This document shows, in pieces, positions 16,121 to 61,038 of a stretch of DNA of 63,807 nt. Position 1 is the stretch's first letter. Every line of letters begins with the position of its first letter. The position numbers were made by a program, and so were the translations under genes. The stretch spans positions 25,178,968 to 25,242,774 of the forward strand of contig NW_026943822.1 of assembly GCF_035594765.1 (NCBI RefSeq), read 5' to 3'. The notes under the pieces were generated by a model. It saw nothing but the letters and a program-made list of their open reading frames with translations. It made no database searches and was not told the origin of the DNA. This stretch comes from Anolis carolinensis. Lineage: Eukaryota.

Positions 16121-17780
16121 GAGAAACAGCTCCCTGAGGCGCCAAAGGCAAGGCGCGTGCTCCTGCTTGACTGGGACGCCCATAATCCCCTCAGAAAGCA
16201 AGACAGGGATGCAGAGTTCGGCCTGTGCTTCATCTTTATTCCCAGGGAGGAACAGAAGGAGGGAAGGAAGGAACACAAGTGGACACAGTCCTGTCAGAAC
16301 GACAACAACAAACATGGCGTCGATGGAGAGGTGCGGCCTAGTCCCGTTTGGAGCCTGGGAGACAGTGAAATGGCGGGAAGGAGGGCCTTTTGTGGCTGAA
16401 GAGATGCGGCCTAGTCCCGTTTGGAGCCAGGGATACAGTAAAATGGTGGGAAGATGGGCCTTTTGTGGCCGAAGAGATGCAGCTTAGTCCCAGATCGTGT
16501 TCAGAAGCCCCACAGCACGCTTCGCCAGGTTGGGGTTTCTACGGTGTTGACGGCAAAGCGAGCTATTCGCTATGTGCTTTGTGGCTCCCACCTCCGTCCA
16601 TCCGGGTGCAGCCGGTGCCGCTGGAGAGTGATGGTGGAGAGGATGGCATGTTACTGAGAAAGCCAGGGAAGGCTACTACAGAATCGGAGGAGCTGAAATT
16701 CTCTGACAGTCAAAACAGCAGCACGGCAGGGGTTTTAGATAGGAAACCAAGGAGATGAAAGCAGGGAAAAGGTTCGAGAGACAGGACTTTATGATCTAGA
16801 GAGAAGGAAAAAGGGAAGAAAGAAAGGGAGAAATTGTTTGTGAAGAAATGGAATGAAGATAGAAGGAGGCCTTTTGGAAAAGGACCTGTTTGGTGGGCAA
16901 AGGGCATCATGGATGCCATCATGCCGTTACTGACCATTGCTGACAACAACAAACAGGCGAGGTCACCCATGCCAGAGGCCGGATAGGTAAGAGGCACCCA
17001 AAAGAAGGGCAAAGAAAGCAGAGAGGTGTGGATAGAAAGAAGGAGCTTATTTAGAAATGTTAGAAACCTCTACTATAAAAAGGTTGAGTTACACCTCAGC
17101 CTTTTGGCACTATTTTTCTATTGCACACCCAATAGCTTTGTCTGGCCAAAATAAATCTATTGTGTTTTACTCTACTAGGAGTATTGGGGGCACCGATCCT
17201 TAATAATGGGAGCCTGCAGCCATGGAGCCAAGAGGGCAAAGGGACAACAGCAGCCTCATTGAAACAGAGCCAGCCAAGGCTGTGAACTAAGGCACATTTT
17301 CTCCAAAGGCATTGAGCGGGAAGCATTGGCCAGCTCAACCAGCCTTCAGTCTGTTCCTGCCAAGACGAGAAAGCTGGTGTGCGACTTCTCTGTGGGGATA
17401 TAGCTATCTTTGTGTGTGTGTGTGTGTTTTTTTTTTTTGCCTTGGTCCAGATTGTGGTGCTGAGCACTCAGCTTGAGGGACCAAAAGGACTGCATCCGCT
17501 CCCTCTCCTCCTCAAGCTGCCCATTCTGTAACTGTGCCAGAGGATTTGGGGACTTTGACAGAAGGGGTCTTCTGCTCAGAAACAAGCAGGCAGGCAGGCT
17601 GTAGGCCAATCCTTCCCGCTGAATATGAAGAAAAGGGAATGGAAGCCAAGCTCCGGTTGGCATCGTTCGAAAGCAGGCTCCAAGGCTTCTCACAAAGGCT
17701 ACTTCTTCTATGTGCAGGGCAGGCAGGAGCGTCCGGCAAAGGGGTCGAACGGAGCCCCGGATCCGCCCCCAGCAGGCCGC

Positions 17781-23950: not shown

Positions 23951-26900
23951 TTAAAAAACTGCAGAAATGTTTGTTTACAAATTGCTTGCTCCAGGCGCTG
24001 TACTTGCTGTCTCTTTCCTCTCGTTGGAGAACACTCAACAACAACAACACCAGAACCAACTGCAGCAAAAGAGACTCCTAAACCCTTAGGCAGGAGAAAG
24101 GCCTGCTTTGGGATTGGATGGATTGGATGGAGACCTTTTCCTTGGGGCAACCGATTGCAGGAGACAAACAGATATCCCTCAGTCATCAGCCCAAGACAGT
24201 CCCTATTCCCTGTGAATCACGGCAAATGAAGAGGTTGGAAAAAATTGTGGCGAATCACAGATTGAAGGCAAAGCATCCCTTCATTAGAAGATCGATGCTT
24301 TGCAGCTCTGGGGGCAAATGGATAAAAATTAGCGTTTCATGGTTTCTGGGGACAAGAGACCCAGACAAATTGGTTTTAAGCCACGAGGGAGACCTGCTGC
24401 TAATTTTGAGGAATGGGTGCGACCGGGAACTCTGCTTAGCCCAAATTTCTGAAGTTATAATTCCACTTTGGACTTGCTGGTGTCGGTAATGCAAAGCGAC
24501 ACTGAAGATGATGGCAAGCTGATGAAGAAATGCGGAGTGCGTTGCAAAGAAAAGAAGAAGCCCAGCAGAGGAAGGAGAGACTCGAGGGGGCTGCGGATGC
24601 CGCAAGTTCGGTTAGTTGGATGGGCCTCTTTCGGGAGAGATTTATTTGTGTACTCTGGCGTGGCTGAACAGAGTTGGACTAGATGGGCAAGCCCTTTCTG
24701 ATAAACACAAGGAGAAAGCCAAACAGTGTGGGAGGGGAGCAAACGGCCCTTTCGTCGCTCCCATTCCTGGTGCCAAAACACACAGTCCCTCCTTCTTCCT
24801 TCTCTGGAAGGCCAAGCGGCCAAAGACAAAGCCATGTGAGCCCAGGGAGAGGCCACGGCCTGGCTGGACACTTGGTGGGACAAGGCCAAGAGGAGGGCTG
24901 CCCTTTCCTTGTGCCATTGGGGAGGGGAAAGCAGCCTCCGGGGCTGGAAAAGGGACCCATCCCTTTTGCAAAAGGCACACCTCCAAATATTAGTATTTAC
25001 TCAAATCTCACCTTTTTATGCTCAATTACCTTCCCAAAATGAGGGTGTGCATTAAATTCGCGTAATGTGGCAATCTTAGTGTTGAGCCAAAGCCAAAGGG
25101 GAAGCCGATTTGGGAGCTCCTCTTTGAGGGATACCATCTCTACAGCATTGATCACACATAAGGTTTTGTTTTCCATCAATGGAAGCTTTGGTGTCCTAAC
25201 ACTCATTCAACTGTAATGGCCAATGACAAAGAGCACACTTTTTGCCTCTCTGCGTTGCATTCGGCAGCAAATCCTTTCTTTGGTTCCAGGGTTTTGAAAA
25301 TGGAGGTGCGCATTAGATTCAATGGCACATGAAACTTGAATCGTTACGGGTATATTTACTTACTCAGACCCAAGCCTGTGTGCGATCCCTGGCCAGGAAG
25401 GAAGGAAACAGGGCGGCTGTGGCTTATCTTTTGCTCCTGCTTCTCTGGGTGAAGGGGCCCGAGCGAGGCCTCTCCCTCCGGCCCACCCCTCTCCACCCCA
25501 CACTTCTTCTCCTCCTTCTCCCTGACCCCTTTCTCTGCCTCGCCTTTGCAAACTTCAAAGCGGAAGCAGGGCAGGATCCCTCTCTGCGGTTTCCTTGCCA
25601 GGAGGAGAGCCGTCCGAGCTCCAGGCCCGCATCATATGATCCCTGTTTCATAAAGAAGGGCTTCTTTCTTCAGCCTGGTGGGAACTCGATTAAGGAGCAG
25701 CACCAACAAAGTGGCCTTTGATCTCTCCTCCGACTAAGAGCATTACGGTCCTGGGAAGAGAGGGATGGAGCCAGGGCGGAGGGGGAAGTGAGTGCCCACA
25801 AGGGCTTCTCTTGCCACCCTTGCAGAACCGACACGCGGTCCGTTTGTGGCTCTTTGCAATCCCAACACACCGGCAAGCCACAGCGGGCCACCAACAGATG
25901 TGTCTGCATTGCTCTTGCTCTGAAGAGGAGATCCCACTGCCTCGCGGGGGTCTGTCCCGCCCGGATCCTTGCCTTCCACCTTATTCCTCCCCGGATTGAG
26001 GCCTCTGCCTACAAGGAGCCTTCTGATGCCTTCCTGCGGTGCAGACCAAACAGGGAGAGAGAGGAATCATAGAATAACAGAGCATGGATCATCTAGTCCA
26101 ACCCCCTTGCATGCAGGAAAAGCACTATCAAAGCAACCTCAAGAGATGGCCATCCAGCCTCTGCTGGACTCTGAGGAAGAGAGTTCCACTGTTGAACAGT
26201 GAGGAAGTTCTTCCTAATGTTCAGCTGGAATCTCCTTTCCCGGGATTGCTCAGAGTCCTAGTCTCCAAGGGAGCAGAGAGCAAGTTTGTTCCCTCCTCCT
26301 TACGGCATCCTTTTCCTTACCTGTGGGAGGAAGCAAGGACGGGCGGACGGAAGACTGGCACTACAGGAGGAAGAGGAAGGGTCGGAGGAAGGCAACAGCG
26401 GCGGTGGGTCTCTGGGTCAGGGTCCGGTCCATCGGCCTTGCTTCTTGGAGGGAGGGGGCCCAGCGGCGGGTCCCAAACCCCAGAGCAGGCAGGCAACAGG
26501 CAGAGAGAGAGAGAGAGAGAGAGAGAGGTTCCTAATGACTCTCAGCTGCTTGTCATGTGCTTCTGGCTGCCCTGGTCAAGTGATGGGGAGCTCCTGTGCC
26601 AGCCCCACGGCCCTCCCCTTGCAGAAGGGGCCTCCCTTGGACCTCAAGGAAGAAGGAAGGAAGGATGGAAAGAAGGGGAGCAAAGGGAAGCAGTCCCTTT
26701 CCATCCGTGGGACTTGGCTGCCGTTGCTGCTTCGCAACCCCACTTCCTGCCGGTGTTACGGCACTGCTTCCTCTTCTGCTGCGCCGCTTGCCCAACACAA
26801 ACACCCCTTGGCCCTTCCTCTCTTCCTCCCCTGCCACAGGCTGGGATGCAAGGGAAGAATGAAAAATATTTGGAAATATTTCATGAAAGAGTGGAGAAAC

Positions 26901-28017
26901 TCTATTAAAGTGGCAGTTTGGGCCTTTTGGGGCACTTCTTGTGCAAGGAGCAAGTCACAGAAAGTATTATATACACAACTAGCTGTGCCCGGCCACGCGT
27001 TGCTGTGGCAAAGTGGTGGTGGTATTGGTTAAAAATTGTTGTATAATTTTTATTTGACGTTATTTGTATTTTTTAATTAATTTTATTGTAAGTTATCTTT
27101 TTATTATATTTTATTATTTTCTTGTATTAGTTTTAGTTATTTTCTGTTATTATAGTATTTTATTATATTAATTTTTTAGTGTGTTTAATTATTTTTTTAG
27201 TGTTTTTTATTATTTTTTATTGGCTTGCTAGGAGAAGGGGCTTAGCCTTCTAACTGGCAGCAATTGGATAAAAGCAATTATTCCTCTCTCTCTAATTAGG
27301 ACTTTATTTTTCTTCTTTTTGTTGTATCAACCTAGAGCCGTGGATGAGGGGTTGTGTCGTCAAATTTCGAGGTTGGGGGGGCCTGTACTTTTGTTGTTTT
27401 GTGGGTCGCCGTGATGCCATCACTCTTTTATATATAGATATATCTCTCCCTCCAGGTGTTTTGGACTTTGTCCCAAAAGTCCTAACAGCTGGTAATAATA
27501 ATATAGTACTCACACATTTTAATATTTTTTTATAATTCACGTTTTAATAGCGTTAATATAACTTTTAATTGATTTTGGTATTGTTATTGTTTTATTGAAC
27601 TGCCACTATTTATTGAATGTGTTTTTGGGGCAATGGAATTTGCTGTTTGTTGTAAGCTGCCCTGAGTCCCTACGGGTGACAAGGGCGGGGTAGAAATGAT
27701 GTAAATAAATAAATAAAATAAATAGTATAATAATGAGAATAGTACTATTATAATATATGTTGTCGAAGGCTTTCAAGGTTGTTGTGTGTTTTCCGGGCTG
27801 TCTGGCCGTGTTCCAGAAGCATTCTCTCCTGACATTTCGCTCACATCTATGGCAGGCTTCCTCAGGTTTGCCCCTCAGTTGTTTGCAAGTCGGACATTTG
27901 CAATCAGGGATGACCTGTAGATACGTAAAATAACAATAATACTAATAATCTATAAGTATCTATAATACTAATAATCTGTGTGTGTATATTCATATAACAC
28001 AATGTACTGTTCCATTA

Positions 28018-28500
28018 TGGAGTGGTGCAGCAGGTTAAACCACTGAGCTGCTGTACTTGCTGACCGGGAGGTCGGTGGTTCGAATCTGGGGAGCAGGGTG
28101 AGCTCCCGCAGTTAGCCCCAGCTTCTGCCAACCAAGCAGTTCGAAAACATACAAATGTGAGTAGATGAATAGGTACTGTAAGGGTTACCCTAGACAAAAA
28201 ACCCCTCCCAAATGTTATTGTTAATTCACTTCTATGTACCATGTATGTACATAGTATGTTCATATTTTATATTTTAACTATCTTGATTGGGCTCGTCCCC
28301 ATGTAAGCCGCTCCGAGTCCCTTTGGGGAGATGGAGGCGGGGTACAACAATAAAATTATTATTATTACTGTAACGGCGCAGCATGCAGTCATGCCAGTGG
28401 CCACATGACCTTGGAGGTGTCTACGGACAACGCCGGCTCAGAAATGGAGATGAGAACCGATCCCTCGAGTTGGACAGGACTGGGCTGAATGTCAGGGGAA
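28018..28500 (+). mobile_element. Sauria-type SINE (interrupted)
   Basis: GGTTAAACCACTGAGCTGCT...GGTTCGAATCTGGGGAGC...CCACATGACCTTGGAGGTGTCTACGGACAACGCCGGCTC. Other copies at 30413-30674 (-) and 50309-50570 (+). Confidence 0.75.
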
Positions 28501-28624
28501 TGGTTTCAGTGGCTTCCCTGTGTGGTTGTGAGAGTGGTCTAGTATTTCTGTGAGAATACATCAAGGGAGCAGATGAAGAAACACAAACAATCTCCAGACC
28601 CACCAGCGCATTTATTAGCAGCCT

Positions 28625-29132
28625 ACTTCCGGACTACAGCTCCCGGCGTCCCTTGCGGCAGGGAGGGAGCCTCGTCTCGGGCCAGTCCTGCCCAGGCGGG
28701 GCTCCATCTCTAGGTTTCCACGCCGCGGCGCCTCCCGAGGCGGGTTCTTCCTTCCACAGCCCGAAACACGCACCGAGGGGCCCTGGAGGCGAGGAACGCC
28801 ATTCAGACGCGCAGGGCGCTCTTTCCCGACGCGTGTCGTGCTAGCGCTCCTCCCCTTTCTGGGCGGGGCCTGCCTCCTTCCGCTCCTCCCCTTTCTGGGC
28901 GGGGCCTGCCTCCATCCGCTCCTCCCCTTTCTGGGCGGGGCCTGCCTCTTCCCGCTCCGCCTCCTCTTTCTGGAAAACGGGCTTCCAGACGTAGACGCCG
29001 CTGGAGACGCCCAAAATGGCGGCCAGGAGCAACTGCGGGAAGCCCCGCCCACGGAACATCACGATTGGTTAAGCTTCCCTGTCCTGCCCCGGAAGTATCG
29101 CGAGATCCCACGCGAGGTTTTGCTGTACGGTG
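28625..29132. promoter_or_regulatory. PIGB/PIGBOS1 bidirectional CpG-island promoter elements
   Basis: ETS ACTTCCGG at 28625; ZNF143-type ACTACAGCTCCC at 28633; GC boxes at 28861, 28897, 28933 and 29043; YY1-type AAAATGGCGGC at 29013; ATTGG at 29064; CCGGAAGT at 29089; TATCGCGAGA (TMTCGCGANR, BANP-type) at 29096. Confidence 0.7.
28841..29059 (-). CDS. PIGBOS1: PIGBOS1 mitochondrial outer-membrane microprotein ortholog (72 aa, with a repeat-extended C-terminus)
   Basis: MFRGRGFPQLLLAAILGVSSGVYVWKPVFQK resembles the recalled human [31 protein letters not shown] (single TM helix). It lies antisense and head-to-head to PIGB as in human. Minus-strand AATAAA at 28611-28616. Confidence 0.9.
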   Translation of the reverse strand: MFRGRGFPQLLLAAILGVSSGVYVWKPVFQKEEAEREEAGPAQKGEERMEAGPAQKGEERKEAGPAQKGEER

Positions 29133-30802
29133 ATGGCGGCGGCCGCCGAGTCAGAAGCACGTCTCCGGAAGCGGAAGCGGGCGCCGCGTGGGCCCGGTTT
29201 GGAGAGCCCCGTGGCGGCGTCGTCGTCGTGGGTACGCTTGGCCTTCTTGGTCACGGCGCTGCGGCTCCTGAACGCCTTCCTGGTCCAGACCAGCTTCGTC
29301 CCCGACGAGTACTGGCAGGCGCTGGAAGTCGCGCACCGGGCCGCCTTCCGATATCCTTTCAGGGTGAGGTGAGCAATGGGAGGCCGAGGATGGGGAGGGG
29401 GCGGGGCTAGGATGGCACTACTCCGCCAATGGGAACCAAGGCTGGGAAGGGGGCGGGACCGGGATGGCTTCAATCTACCAATAGGAACCGAGGCTTGAAA
29501 GGAGGCGGGGTCGGGATAGGGTTACTACGCCAATGGGAACCGGGGCCGGGCTGGGGTCAGAAGGCTGGGAAAGGGGCGGGACCTCGCTGAGTTTACTACG
29601 CCAATGGGGAAGGAGGCTAGAAAAGGGGCGGGCCGGGATAGGGTTGGTTGACCATTGGGAATCGAGGCTAGAAAAGGGGCGGGCCGGGATAGGGCTGGTT
29701 GACCAATGGGAATCGAGGCTAGCAAAGGGGCGGGCCGGGATAGGGTTGGTTGACCAATGGGAATCGAGGCTAGAAAAGGAGCGGGTCCGGGCTGGGTTGA
29801 CTCCGCCAATGGGAGCCGAGGCTGGGAGAGGGGGCGGGGCAGAGAGGAGGCCTTGTGAGAGGAATCCCAAACGGCTGCCTTCCTGAGCGTCTCCCTCACG
29901 TACGGTTTCCTGACGTGGGAGTGGGCGCGGGGCCTGCGCAGCGCCCTCTACCCGCTGGCCCTGGCCGGGCTCTACAAGGCGCTGGAGCTGCTGGGGACGG
30001 ACCGCGCGCCCCTCCTGGTGAGTGTCTTGTCCTCCCTCCCTCCCGCCCGCGCAGCAGGCCCCGCGCCCCTCTCCACGCGCCCAGGAGGGAACCCCGAGGG
30101 CTGAGCCCGCGCCTCCTCCTCCTCCTCCTCCCGCAGGTCTGGCTCCCGCGCCTGGCCCAGGCCCTGCTGGCGGCCGTGGCCGACGTGCGGCTCTACTTCC
30201 TGGCCAAGCGGATAGAAGGCCCCGCCGTGGCCCCCTGGGTGGTGAGTCCCCCCCCCCATACATACACATACATACATACCTATACACACACACATAGACT
30301 ATTTATCTATTTATCCAAACACACACACACACATATATACTTTATGTATATACATATCCATAGAGAATATCTATCTATCTATATCTAAACATGCATATAT
30401 ATATATATATATAAGGTAAAGGTTTCCCCTGACGTGAAGTCCAGTCGTGACCGACTCTGGGACTCTGGTGCTCATCTCCATTTCTAAGCCACGCCGTTAC
30501 CTTCCCACCGGAGCAGTACCTATTGATCTACTCACATTGGCATGTTTTCGAACTGCTAGGTTGGCAGGAGCTGGAGCTAACAGTGGGAGCTCATTCCACT
30601 CCCGGGATTTGAACCTGGGACCTTTTGGTCCGCAAGTTCAGCAGCTCAGCGCTTTAACACACTTTGCCACCGGGGCTCATACCCATAGAGAATACGTATC
30701 TATATATATCCAAACATGCACACACACATATATATATATTGCAAATATACAGAAAAAAATCTATATCTTTCTATCCAAACACACACATACACATATATAC
30801 TG

Positions 30803-57920: not shown

Positions 57921-60900
57921 TAATTGTGGTTTTTTAATTTAGATTTTAATAATCTTTGATGTGGGTTTTACGGCTGTATTAGATTGAAATGTGTTCAATA
58001 CTACTACTACTACTACTAATAATAATAATAATAATAATGTGTTTTTAATTTAGTTTTGAATAATCTTCGATGTGGTTTTTACAGCTGTATTAGATGGAAA
58101 TGTGTTCATGACGGGATCGCGGGATCGCGGATTGACGTCTTTGCTTTTTAATGAGTCCCGATGGGGCAGAAAAGCGGGATGGAAATAAATAAATACGTGA
58201 GAAATGTAACATTCCCCTTACCTTCGGCATACAATTCCAGTTCGCAGAAGGCCGTCCCACGCCGGACGTGAGCCTTCGCTCTGGCCTTTGCGTTGTCAGG
58301 GACGGGAGGAGTCAATAAATCCAAAGCCTTGAAAATAATAATAATAATAATAATAATGTGCTGCTTGTTCTTGAGGCTCAAGGCTTTAGAGCAGGCATGG
58401 GCCAACTTGGGCCCTCCTTCCTGTTGTTTTGGACTCCAACTCCCACCATTCCTGACAGCCTCAGGCCCCTTCCTTTTCCCCCTCAGCCGCTTAAGCGGCT
58501 GAGGGGGAAAAGGAAGGGGCCTGAGGCTGTCAGGAATGGTGGGAGTTGGAGTCCAAAACAACAGGAAGGAGGGCCCAAGTTGGCCCATGCTTGCTTTATA
58601 ATATCTGTTAAGGAAGACGTAAATAGCCCATACCTTGGAGGCATCTTCGATGGCCTTGTGCAGGTTCCTCAGCCTCAGGTGGGAGGCAGCTCTGTTCAGG
58701 TACAAGACCGGGATCCGGCTGTTGATGCGAATCGCCAAATTGTAAGCATTGACCGCCGCCAGGTAGTTCCCCGTTGCAAACATTTTGCTAAACGAACAGA
58801 AAAGCTGCGTAAACAGAAGGCTTAGCTGCCAGCCGAAGCACATAGGGACTCCGTCTGAGGCCTGGGAACTCACTTGCCCTTGTCTTTCAGCCAGTCGGGG
58901 TCTTTCTCCTCTTCTCGTAAATCCTCGATCTCTGCAGCGTCGGCGTCAATCATGCGTCGGGCCTCTGCTTGCTTGCGCAGCCACTGAGGAAGGGAGGGAG
59001 GTGCAACGGTCATTTCGGAGACAGACGGCCAAAGGAAGGACCAAGATGTGAAAGGATGATGGAAGAAAGAGGGAGAGGATGTATGACCAATGCAACTCGA
59101 TTATTATAATAATTATTATTGAGGTTGGATGGCCATCTTTCAGGAGAGCTTTAATGGTGAAGGCAGAAAAGAGTTGGACTGGGTGGTCAATGCAGCCTCT
59201 TCCAACACTATTATTAATTATTATTGAGGTTGGATGGCCATCTGTCGGGGGAGCTTTAATGGTGAAGGCAGAAAAGGATTGGACTGGATGGTCAATGCAG
59301 CCTCTTCCAACACTATTATTATTTATTATTGAGGTTGGATGGCCATCTGTCGGGGGAGCTTTAATGGTGAAGGCAGAAAAGGATTGGACTGGCTGGTCAA
59401 TGCAGTCTCTTCCAACACTATTATTAATTATTATTGAGGTTGGATGGCCATCTGTCAGGGGAGCTTTAATGGTGAAGGCAGAAAAGGATTGGACTGGATG
59501 GTCAATGCAGCCTCTTCCAACACTATTATTAATTATTATTGAGGTTGGATGGCCATCTGTCGGGGGAGCTTTAATGGTGGAGGCAGAAAAGGATTGGACT
59601 GGATGGTCAATGCAGTCTCTTCCAACACTATTATTAATTATTATTGAGGTTGGATGGCCATCTGTCGGGGGAGCTTTAATGGTGAAGGCACAAAAGGGTT
59701 AGACTGGATGGTCAATGCAGTCTCTTCCAACACTATTATTAATTATTATTGAGGTTGGATGGCCATCTGTCGGGGGAGCTTTAATGGTGAAGGCAGAAAA
59801 GGGTTAGACTGGATGGTCAATGCAGTCTCTTCCAACACTATTATTAATTATTATTGAGGTTGGATGGCCATCTGTCGGGGGAGCTTTAATGGTGAAGGCA
59901 GAAAAGGGTTAGACTGGATGGTCAATGCAGTCTCTTCCAACACTATTATTAATTATTATTGAGGTTGGATGGCCATCTGTCGGGGGAGCTTTAATGGTGA
60001 AGGCAGAAAAGGGTTAGACTGGATGGTCAATGCAGTCTCTTCCAACACTATTATTAATTATTATTGAGGTTGGATGGCCATCTGTCGGGGGAGCTTTAAT
60101 GGTGAAGGCAGAAAAGGGTTAGACTGGATGGTCAATGCAGCCTCTTCCAACACTATTATTAATTATTATTGAGGTTGGATGGCCATCTGTCGGGGGAGCT
60201 TTAATGGTGAAGGCAGAAAAGGGTTAGACTGGATGGTCAATGCAGTCTCTTCCAACACTATTATTAATTATTATTGAGGTTGGATGGCCATCTGTCGGGG
60301 GAGCTTTAATGGTGAAGGCAGAAAAGGATTGGACTGGATGGTCAATGCAGTCTCTTCCAACACTATTATTATTTATTATTGAGGTTGGATGGCCATCTGT
60401 CGGGGGAGCTTTAATGGTGAAGGCAGAAAAGGATTGGACTGGATGGTCAATGCAGTCTCTTCCAACACTATTATTAATTATTATTGAGGTTGGATGGCCA
60501 TCTGTTGGGGGAGCTTTAATGGTGAAGGCAGAAAAGGATTGGACTGGCTGGTCAATGCAGTCTCTTCCAACACTATTATTAATTATTATTGAGGTTGGAT
60601 GGCCATCTGTCGGGGGAGCTTTAATGGTGAAGGCAGAAAAGGATTGGACTGGCTGGTCAATGCAGTCTCTTCCAACACTATTATTAATTATTATTGAGGT
60701 TGGATGGCCATCTGTCGGGGGAGCTTTAATGGTGAAGGCAGAAAAGGATTGGACTGAATGGTCAATGCAGCCTCTTCCAACACTATTATTAATTATTATT
60801 GAGGTTGGATGGCCATCTGTCGGGGGAGCTTTAATGGTGAAGGCAGAAAAGGATTGGACTGGATGGTCAATGCAGCCTCTTTCAACACTATTATTATCAT

Positions 60901-60989
60901 TGAGGTTGCATGGCCATCTGTCGGAGGAGATTTAATGGTGAAGGCAGAAAAGGATTGGACTGGATGGTCAATGCAGCCTCTTCCAACAC

Positions 60990-61038
<49 letters not shown>

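Follow-up and report, generated by a model that had tools for sequence, protein, structure and literature searches.

A probable young coding minisatellite, carrying a GC box as a likely passenger, in the tail of the anole PIGBOS1 microprotein

The closest described system is human PIGBOS1, whose product, according to the accessible text of PMC6814811, has a transmembrane (TM) segment at residues 7 to 29, a cytosolic C terminus, and a stretch (residues 30 to 36) critical for CLCC1 binding; versions with a C-terminal FLAG, APEX, or 3xGFP11 still localize and meet CLCC1. The accessible part of a preprint further states that PIGBOS residues 30 to 54 are needed for calcium effects (10.64898/2026.01.08.697870). 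The human PIGBOS1 and PIGB genes have overlapping 5' ends (PMC6814811, same portion), and human PIGB is named among the minor-intron genes, with a 3' site of the AT-AC type (10.64898/2026.10.16.759739, in the part available). Excerpts of three other sources report that GABPA, NFY, and YY1 sites are overrepresented in divergent promoters (PMC3082894), that YY1 sites favor positions downstream of the start site (PMC11269187), and that promoter VNTRs are known, e.g., that of MAOA (PMC12776774).

We analyzed a 63,807-nucleotide stretch of Anolis carolinensis DNA (the window), for which the ORF listing gives an uninterrupted minus-strand ORF of 72 aa (Table 1). Residues 1 to 47 of this ORF match the Pfam family PF23670 (PIGBOS1) with 52.4 bits (E = 5.9e-14; gathering cutoff, 27 bits), and its closest named relative is the PIGBOS1-like protein of Anolis sagrei (P0005; accession no. 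XP_060611814.1; 47 aa), with 64% identity over 47 aa. The ORF lies on the strand opposite to PIGB in a head-to-head arrangement, with the two ATGs 73 bp apart; the facing ORF, starting at 29133, matches the PIGB-type Pfam family PF03901. The family score, the A. sagrei match, and the head-to-head setting bear out the identification made in a preliminary description of this DNA, and, judged by its sequence, the locus is the anole version of the known PIGBOS1 gene. That description also held that the ORF is easily missed by annotation, which does not stand, as UniRef and NCBI nr contain a 60-aa form and the NCBI set contains the 72-aa one. Among the matches listed in our sequence searches, A. 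sagrei supplied the one Anolis sequence found besides this gene, and no other named squamate ortholog was seen; a literature search for PIGBOS1 in lizards found no paper, and the literature on Anolis promoter repeats, judged by title or abstract start, held none on this locus. Of 525 frames that passed a complexity filter, the 300 longest were scanned with Pfam; exons of the MUN/C2, L24e, and Ras families lay to one side of the gene pair, and further PF03901 exons, a PIERCE match, and a weak TPR match lay to the other. The Ras-family exon reads as RAB27A-like, and the gene order around PIGBOS1 and PIGB presumably matches that in humans. PF23670 also has members in insects (P0132, P0184, P0189, and P0200, from Anastrepha, Haematobia, Rhagoletis, and Ladona, labelled uncharacterized or hypothetical), and the family thus extends beyond vertebrates.

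The predicted signal-anchor of the anole protein has a hydropathy peak of 1.53, and, in keeping with the preliminary description, this N-terminal TM segment aligns with the PIGBOS1 family (PF23670 over residues 1 to 47), including the family-invariant residues G17, G21, Y23, and P27. By analogy with the human protein, we infer that it is anchored in the outer mitochondrial membrane via residues 7 to 29, with the tail and C terminus facing the cytosol. AF2 predicts helices at residues 7 to 25 and 27 to 34 and no secondary structure after residue 34, with low confidence (mean pLDDT, 58; pTM, 0.21). Residues 30 to 36, which by position correspond to the CLCC1-critical stretch of human PIGBOS, agree at none of 7 positions with the majority residue of a set composed largely of mammals, making a transfer of the human CLCC1 mechanism uncertain. 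In particular, Tyr32, present in 100 of the 116 sequences of our first family set, is absent from both anole proteins. The equivalent position is occupied by Tyr in 40 of 107 sequences, among the matches listed, of a second family set drawn from 120 of 166 matches.

TABLE 1 Positions of features around the anole PIGBOS1 gene, counted from the first letter of the window
Feature	Positions	Strand	Basis
PIGBOS1 coding sequence, 72 aa	28841..29059	-	PF23670 over aa 1-47; A. sagrei alignment
Predicted TM signal-anchor, residues 7-29, with G-x3-G-x-Y-x3-P motif	28973..29041	-	Hydropathy; motif; human TM
Residues 30-36, equivalent by position to human CLCC1-critical stretch; unrepeated, diverged, no Tyr32	28952..28972	-	Comparison
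Repeat unit 1, residues 37-48, the original distal tail (homolog: end of A. sagrei protein)	28916..28951	-	Alignment
Repeat unit 2, residues 49-60, M-type; also in P0001	28880..28915	-	Sequence
Repeat unit 3, residues 61-72, K-type; P0001 has no K-type unit	28844..28879	-	Sequence; K-type junction in all four runs
GC box copy in unit 1	28933..28942	+	Sequence
GC box copy in unit 2	28897..28906	+	Sequence
GC box copy in unit 3	28861..28870	+	Sequence
YY1-like motif in PIGBOS1 coding sequence, codons 13-16	29013..29023	+	Sequence
Gap of 73 bp between ATGs, likely shared core promoter	29060..29132	.	CCAAT, ETS-type, and BANP-like motifs
PIGB first coding exon	29133..29350	+	PF03901; joined to exon 2 (29900) in contigs of runs X1 and X9
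PIGB intron 1, AT-AC minor-class, starts ATATCCTTT, ends AC	29351..29899	+	Contigs of runs X1 and X9
Minisatellite of 51-52 bp, about 9 units, upstream of PIGBOS1	29374..29856	.	TRF
Candidate proximal poly(A) signal AATAAA	28611..28616	-	Sequence
GT-AG intron in PIGBOS1 3' UTR, 689 nt	27915..28603	-	One contig of run X9

Residues 37 to 72, starting just past the CLCC1-equivalent stretch, are three 12-residue units that differ in their first residue only (E, M, and K), and TRF reports the corresponding array (28845 to 28958; period, 36; 3.2 copies; 94% matches; score, 207). Thus, the ORF and TRF both agree with the earlier reading of the C terminus as three copies encoded by a 36-bp repeat, i.e., tandem in-frame units inside the PIGBOS1 coding sequence. 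The further proposal that the repeat has replaced the ancestral tail fails on the A. sagrei alignment, which spans residues 1 to 47 through unit 1 (E38, G40, P41, K44, and E46 are identical) and stops where a one-unit protein would end; the A. sagrei tail itself (18 aa) is nonrepetitive, with a single unit, and residues 30 to 36 precede the repeat. As one unit equals the native tail end in this alignment, the tail has been extended rather than replaced. The hexamer GGAGCG occurs at positions 102, 138, 174, and 210 of the coding sequence, spaced 36 nt apart; the first precedes unit 1 and one more ends each unit, so that each unit border has 6 nt of microhomology; such a pattern would be expected from slippage between short flanking homologies. 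The region is repeat-prone, with 23 of the 53 TRF rows in the window having a period of at least 32 bp.

The reading that we prefer, and consider probable, is a young, tolerated coding minisatellite in PIGBOS1 that carries its GC box as a passenger. The native last 12 codons would have been tandemly repeated, likely via replication slippage, lengthening a predicted floppy cytosolic tail and leaving the membrane anchor untouched; extra units would be tolerated because they are located beyond residue 36. The human fusions that still work with a tagged C terminus, the predicted absence of secondary structure after residue 34, and the loose tail length in the family favor this explanation: among the matches listed, the tails of 223 anchored PIGBOS1-family sequences range from 11 to 102 aa, and 17 are at least 43 aa long. 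In the same sequences, an internal tail repeat of at least 5 aa is seen only in P0001 and P0002, both records of this gene; these counts leave out P0003, P0004, and P0008, which are long repetitive proteins (344 to 2,733 aa), and three further sequences that have no anchor motif. The apparent tolerance of repeats would thus be without parallel in other family members, which counts against the preferred explanation.

The plus strand of each unit carries a perfect GGGCGGGGCC, which we take to be the Sp/KLF consensus, at the three places first described, and no other occurrence was found on either strand of the whole window. A CpG island (28301 to 30500) contains the PIGBOS1 coding sequence, and the boxes lie 190 to 270 bp upstream of the PIGB ATG, i.e., a binding-site consensus is present in coding sequence within a promoter region. 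By its location, the repeat may have the promoter role put forward in the preliminary description. The 36-bp units are identical across the GC box as young copies, leaving a test of synonymous constraint on the boxes powerless, and the three boxes are copies of one event. How surprising that single event is can be gauged from codon composition: considering synonymous codings of the central hexapeptide at a GC3 of 0.8 to 0.9 (that of the PIGBOS1 ORF is 0.85), the unit peptide carries the GGGCGG core by chance with a probability of 0.16 to 0.20 and the 9-mer with 0.06 to 0.09. When two of the copies are removed, 649 bp of the island contain 2 GGGCGG cores, versus 1.87 expected from first-order Markov simulations. 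Whatever synonymous codons are chosen, the A. sagrei tail cannot contain GGGCGG on either strand, and the core is encodable at the same place in 5 of 114 other family tails. Thus, the box is neither conserved nor beyond what codon composition leads one to expect; moreover, 8 of the 11 GGGCGG cores in 28600 to 29899 lie outside the coding repeat. Gly-Pro-Ala-Gln codons, set in a CpG island of high GC3, would have given rise to the box by chance, and duplication of the unit would then have carried it along; in each unit, the GC box is likely a passenger and not a conserved switch of the promoter. Sp/KLF proteins may nonetheless bind the predicted boxes, and some effect on transcription is plausible, since a perfect consensus lies in a CpG island at this distance from the PIGB ATG.

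The gap between the ATGs contains CCAAT (minus strand, 29068 to 29064), an ETS-type CCGGAAGT (29089), and a BANP-like TCGCGA element (29096 to 29105); these names, like that of the YY1-like motif, are what we take the motifs to be. PIGB intron 1 holds 8 CCAAT and 7 GGGCGG cores, and the minisatellite within it appears a better candidate than the coding repeat for a repeat-built promoter of PIGBOS1. The promoter would likely rest on the motifs between the ATGs together with this intron-1 array. A plus-strand ATG at 29016, in strong context and within the YY1-like motif, opens an 18-codon frame that is in the PIGB frame and stops at 29070 to 29072. Elsewhere in the window, a 73-bp repeat with YY1-like cores (16327 to 16491) lies just upstream of the first exon of an L24e-family (RSL24D1-like) gene, and promoter-region minisatellites thus recur; a 105-bp minisatellite (59110 to 61005; 18 copies; 97% matches) gives spurious weak Pfam matches.

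Contigs from sequencing runs provided information on transcription. In runs X1 and X9, a contig covering 28919 to 29350 continues into PIGB exon 2 at 29900, and on the minus strand no ATG occurs between 29059 and about 29650. At the exon-2 start (29900 to 29929), X1 and X9 carry 3 differences from the window in 30 letters, and two of them alter the amino acid; this divergence exceeds the four shared substitutions and one insertion seen over the covered upstream part. A further X9 contig covering 28602 to 28874 continues at 27912, joining 28604 to 27914, and the skipped 689 nt read GT-AG on the minus strand only, showing a transcript from the minus strand in which both the last unit and the stop codon are present; the splice is seen in one contig of one of the four runs, and the RNA status of that run is presumed. 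The junction lies 237 nt past the PIGBOS1 stop, so under the 50- to 55-nt rule for NMD the spliced form would be NMD sensitive. The AATAAA reported earlier is present at its given place on the minus strand; contigs of X1 and X5 pass it unspliced, and the X9 contig splices out 7 nt behind it. The exon downstream of the 3' UTR intron enters a dispersed repeat, presumably a SINE, with 8 other matches in the window, and then reaches AATAAA sites at 27614 and 27596.

The number of units was approached through database records and the same runs. P0001, which UniRef and NCBI nr contain, is identical to the protein of the window except that it has two units and is 12 aa shorter (60 aa); copy number therefore likely varies, the two-versus-three unit difference being one between two database records, not genotypes. 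We examined 4 of 24 listed runs, from four studies, all as contigs, which cannot count units. The unit-to-unit junction piece (28847 to 28910) is present in contigs of all four, and the contigs break at the repeat; hence, each run has at least two units, and the repeat is genuine and not confined to this assembly. The K-type junction was seen in all four runs. The core-to-junction depth ratios by run (2.33, 1.93, 1.53, and about 1.42) give a weak hint of about 2, 2, 3, and 3 units, if junctions are uniform and on the strength of a 32-nt piece. The absence of the M-type junction piece from all four runs (by bin algebra) was considered as a sign of other alleles and set aside: a single base separates the M from the K junction, variants of this kind are dropped in contigs, and the records are filtered. 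The window differs from all four runs at 28824, 28952, 29132, and 29159 and by a 1-nt insertion at 28776. On this evidence, the PIGBOS1 repeat is likely a copy-number-variable coding minisatellite.

These observations bear on several other readings. In one, the array is a dual-use VNTR, each unit adding 12 residues and one functional Sp/KLF site and thereby tuning the transcription of PIGB or PIGBOS1. The boxes are perfect, are the only three in the window, and lie inside the CpG island; the unbroken X1 and X9 contigs, running from 28919 through the gap into spliced PIGB, are consistent with overlapping 5' ends as in humans; the YY1-like site at 29013 would fit a plus-strand start inside the PIGBOS1 coding sequence, near the boxes; and promoter VNTRs that alter binding-site density are known, as reported in the accessible part of PMC12776774. 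A start upstream of 29016, however, would put the 18-codon upstream ORF before PIGB, and the PIGB ATG is directly preceded by CCAAT, ETS, and BANP-like motifs of its own. Taken with a box that the A. sagrei tail cannot encode, a chance level of 0.06 to 0.20 for one unit, and the 8 of 11 GGGCGG cores outside the repeat, this makes dual use unlikely in our view. Its more elaborate form, in which a segregating 36-bp VNTR couples, in one mutation step, tail length to the expression of the facing GPI-anchor gene PIGB and a second minisatellite (CCAAT and GC boxes) in the AT-AC intron drives the opposite gene, we consider quite unlikely. The boxes could instead belong to a RAB27A promoter that uses the 28604 donor; this is less likely, since a separate candidate first exon exists with its donor near 26321 and the exon spliced from 28604 enters the dispersed repeat and then AATAAA sites. 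That candidate RAB27A first exon and promoter (about 26320 to 26850, minus strand, with a GTAAG donor near 26321) has no CpG island and shows ETS-like and AP-1-like motifs and a (CT)n tract.

Two further readings concern the repeat itself. It could be real but fixed in number, the two- and three-unit forms reflecting assembly collapse or expansion or a sister species. The copy-number evidence does amount to two records, with contigs that cannot count units, and the window may come from a diverged lineage, given the four sites and the insertion that set it apart from all runs and the 3 of 30 letters by which the spliced PIGB exon-2 end departs from it. Weighing in the other direction, the depth ratios are unequal among the runs (a weak hint), the M-type junction is the only one in P0001 but the runs show the K-type, suggesting several haplotypes, and an array of 108 bp should be within reach of most assemblies, so that we regard a fixed number as very unlikely. 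Still less do we favor the view that the longer acidic tail is a selected change, which alters reach or affinity at ER-mitochondria contacts and perhaps compensates for the lost Tyr32-type stretch. The repeat is unique to the records of this gene among the 223 family tails from the matches listed, at least two units occur in all four runs, the reading frame is kept, and neither anole protein has the Tyr32 found in 100 of 116 first-set sequences. Yet A. sagrei likewise has no Tyr32 and keeps a tail of 18 aa, the differences between units include amino acid changes at the junction (E, M, and K), and a repeat period has a prior chance of one in three of being a multiple of three; selection on the tail thus strikes us as highly improbable. 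Ordinary repeat drift in a tolerant tail, i.e., the passenger-carrying minisatellite that we prefer, is the likelier reading.

Each unit makes up about one-fifth of the microprotein chain. The locus offers natural one-, two-, and three-unit variants of the PIGBOS1 tail. The anole proteins, having no Tyr32 stretch, also provide a means of finding out which features of the tail are required for CLCC1 binding in animals other than mammals. Were unit number to change PIGB expression, the locus would provide a compact example, open to genotyping, of a single repeat constrained both as coding sequence and as promoter.

In comparison with known systems, the anole locus resembles human PIGBOS and the PF23670 family at large in its N-terminal hydrophobic segment with the G-x3-G-x-Y-x3-P motif, its ORF in one exon, and its charged tail (for the human gene, PMC6814811, accessible text), as well as in its head-to-head placement opposite to PIGB. 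Compared with the 25-aa tail of 83 of 116 first-set sequences, it has a 43-aa tail with three 12-aa units, and, unlike human PIGBOS, it is diverged at residues 30 to 36, with Tyr32 absent. In contrast to the human gene, whose ORF lies in exon 2 (PMC6814811, same text), the anole ATG is only 73 bp from that of PIGB, which places the coding sequence inside the promoter CpG island; it also has the 3' UTR intron seen in one run. The A. sagrei protein is similar over 47 aa including the first unit (64% identity) and shares the absence of Tyr32, but it ends after a single unit, at 47 aa, with Asp-Pro where the A. carolinensis protein has Ala-Gln, making the GC box impossible. As in the exonic VNTRs of ACAN, FLG, and the mucins, described in the accessible part of PMC12776774, the unit is in frame, protein length changes, and copy number is likely variable; unlike them, the array has only 2 or 3 units, lies in a microprotein, and overlaps the promoter island of a neighboring gene. 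It also resembles duons and exonic enhancers, as far as the portions available of the sources describe them, in having a transcription factor consensus in coding sequence within a promoter island, and it differs from duons and from the MAOA VNTR in that A. sagrei, the closest named relative, does not have the candidate motif. Among the matches listed, no other family member showed a repeated PIGBOS1 tail, and in-frame exonic VNTRs, promoter VNTRs, and dual-use exonic sites are all known classes.
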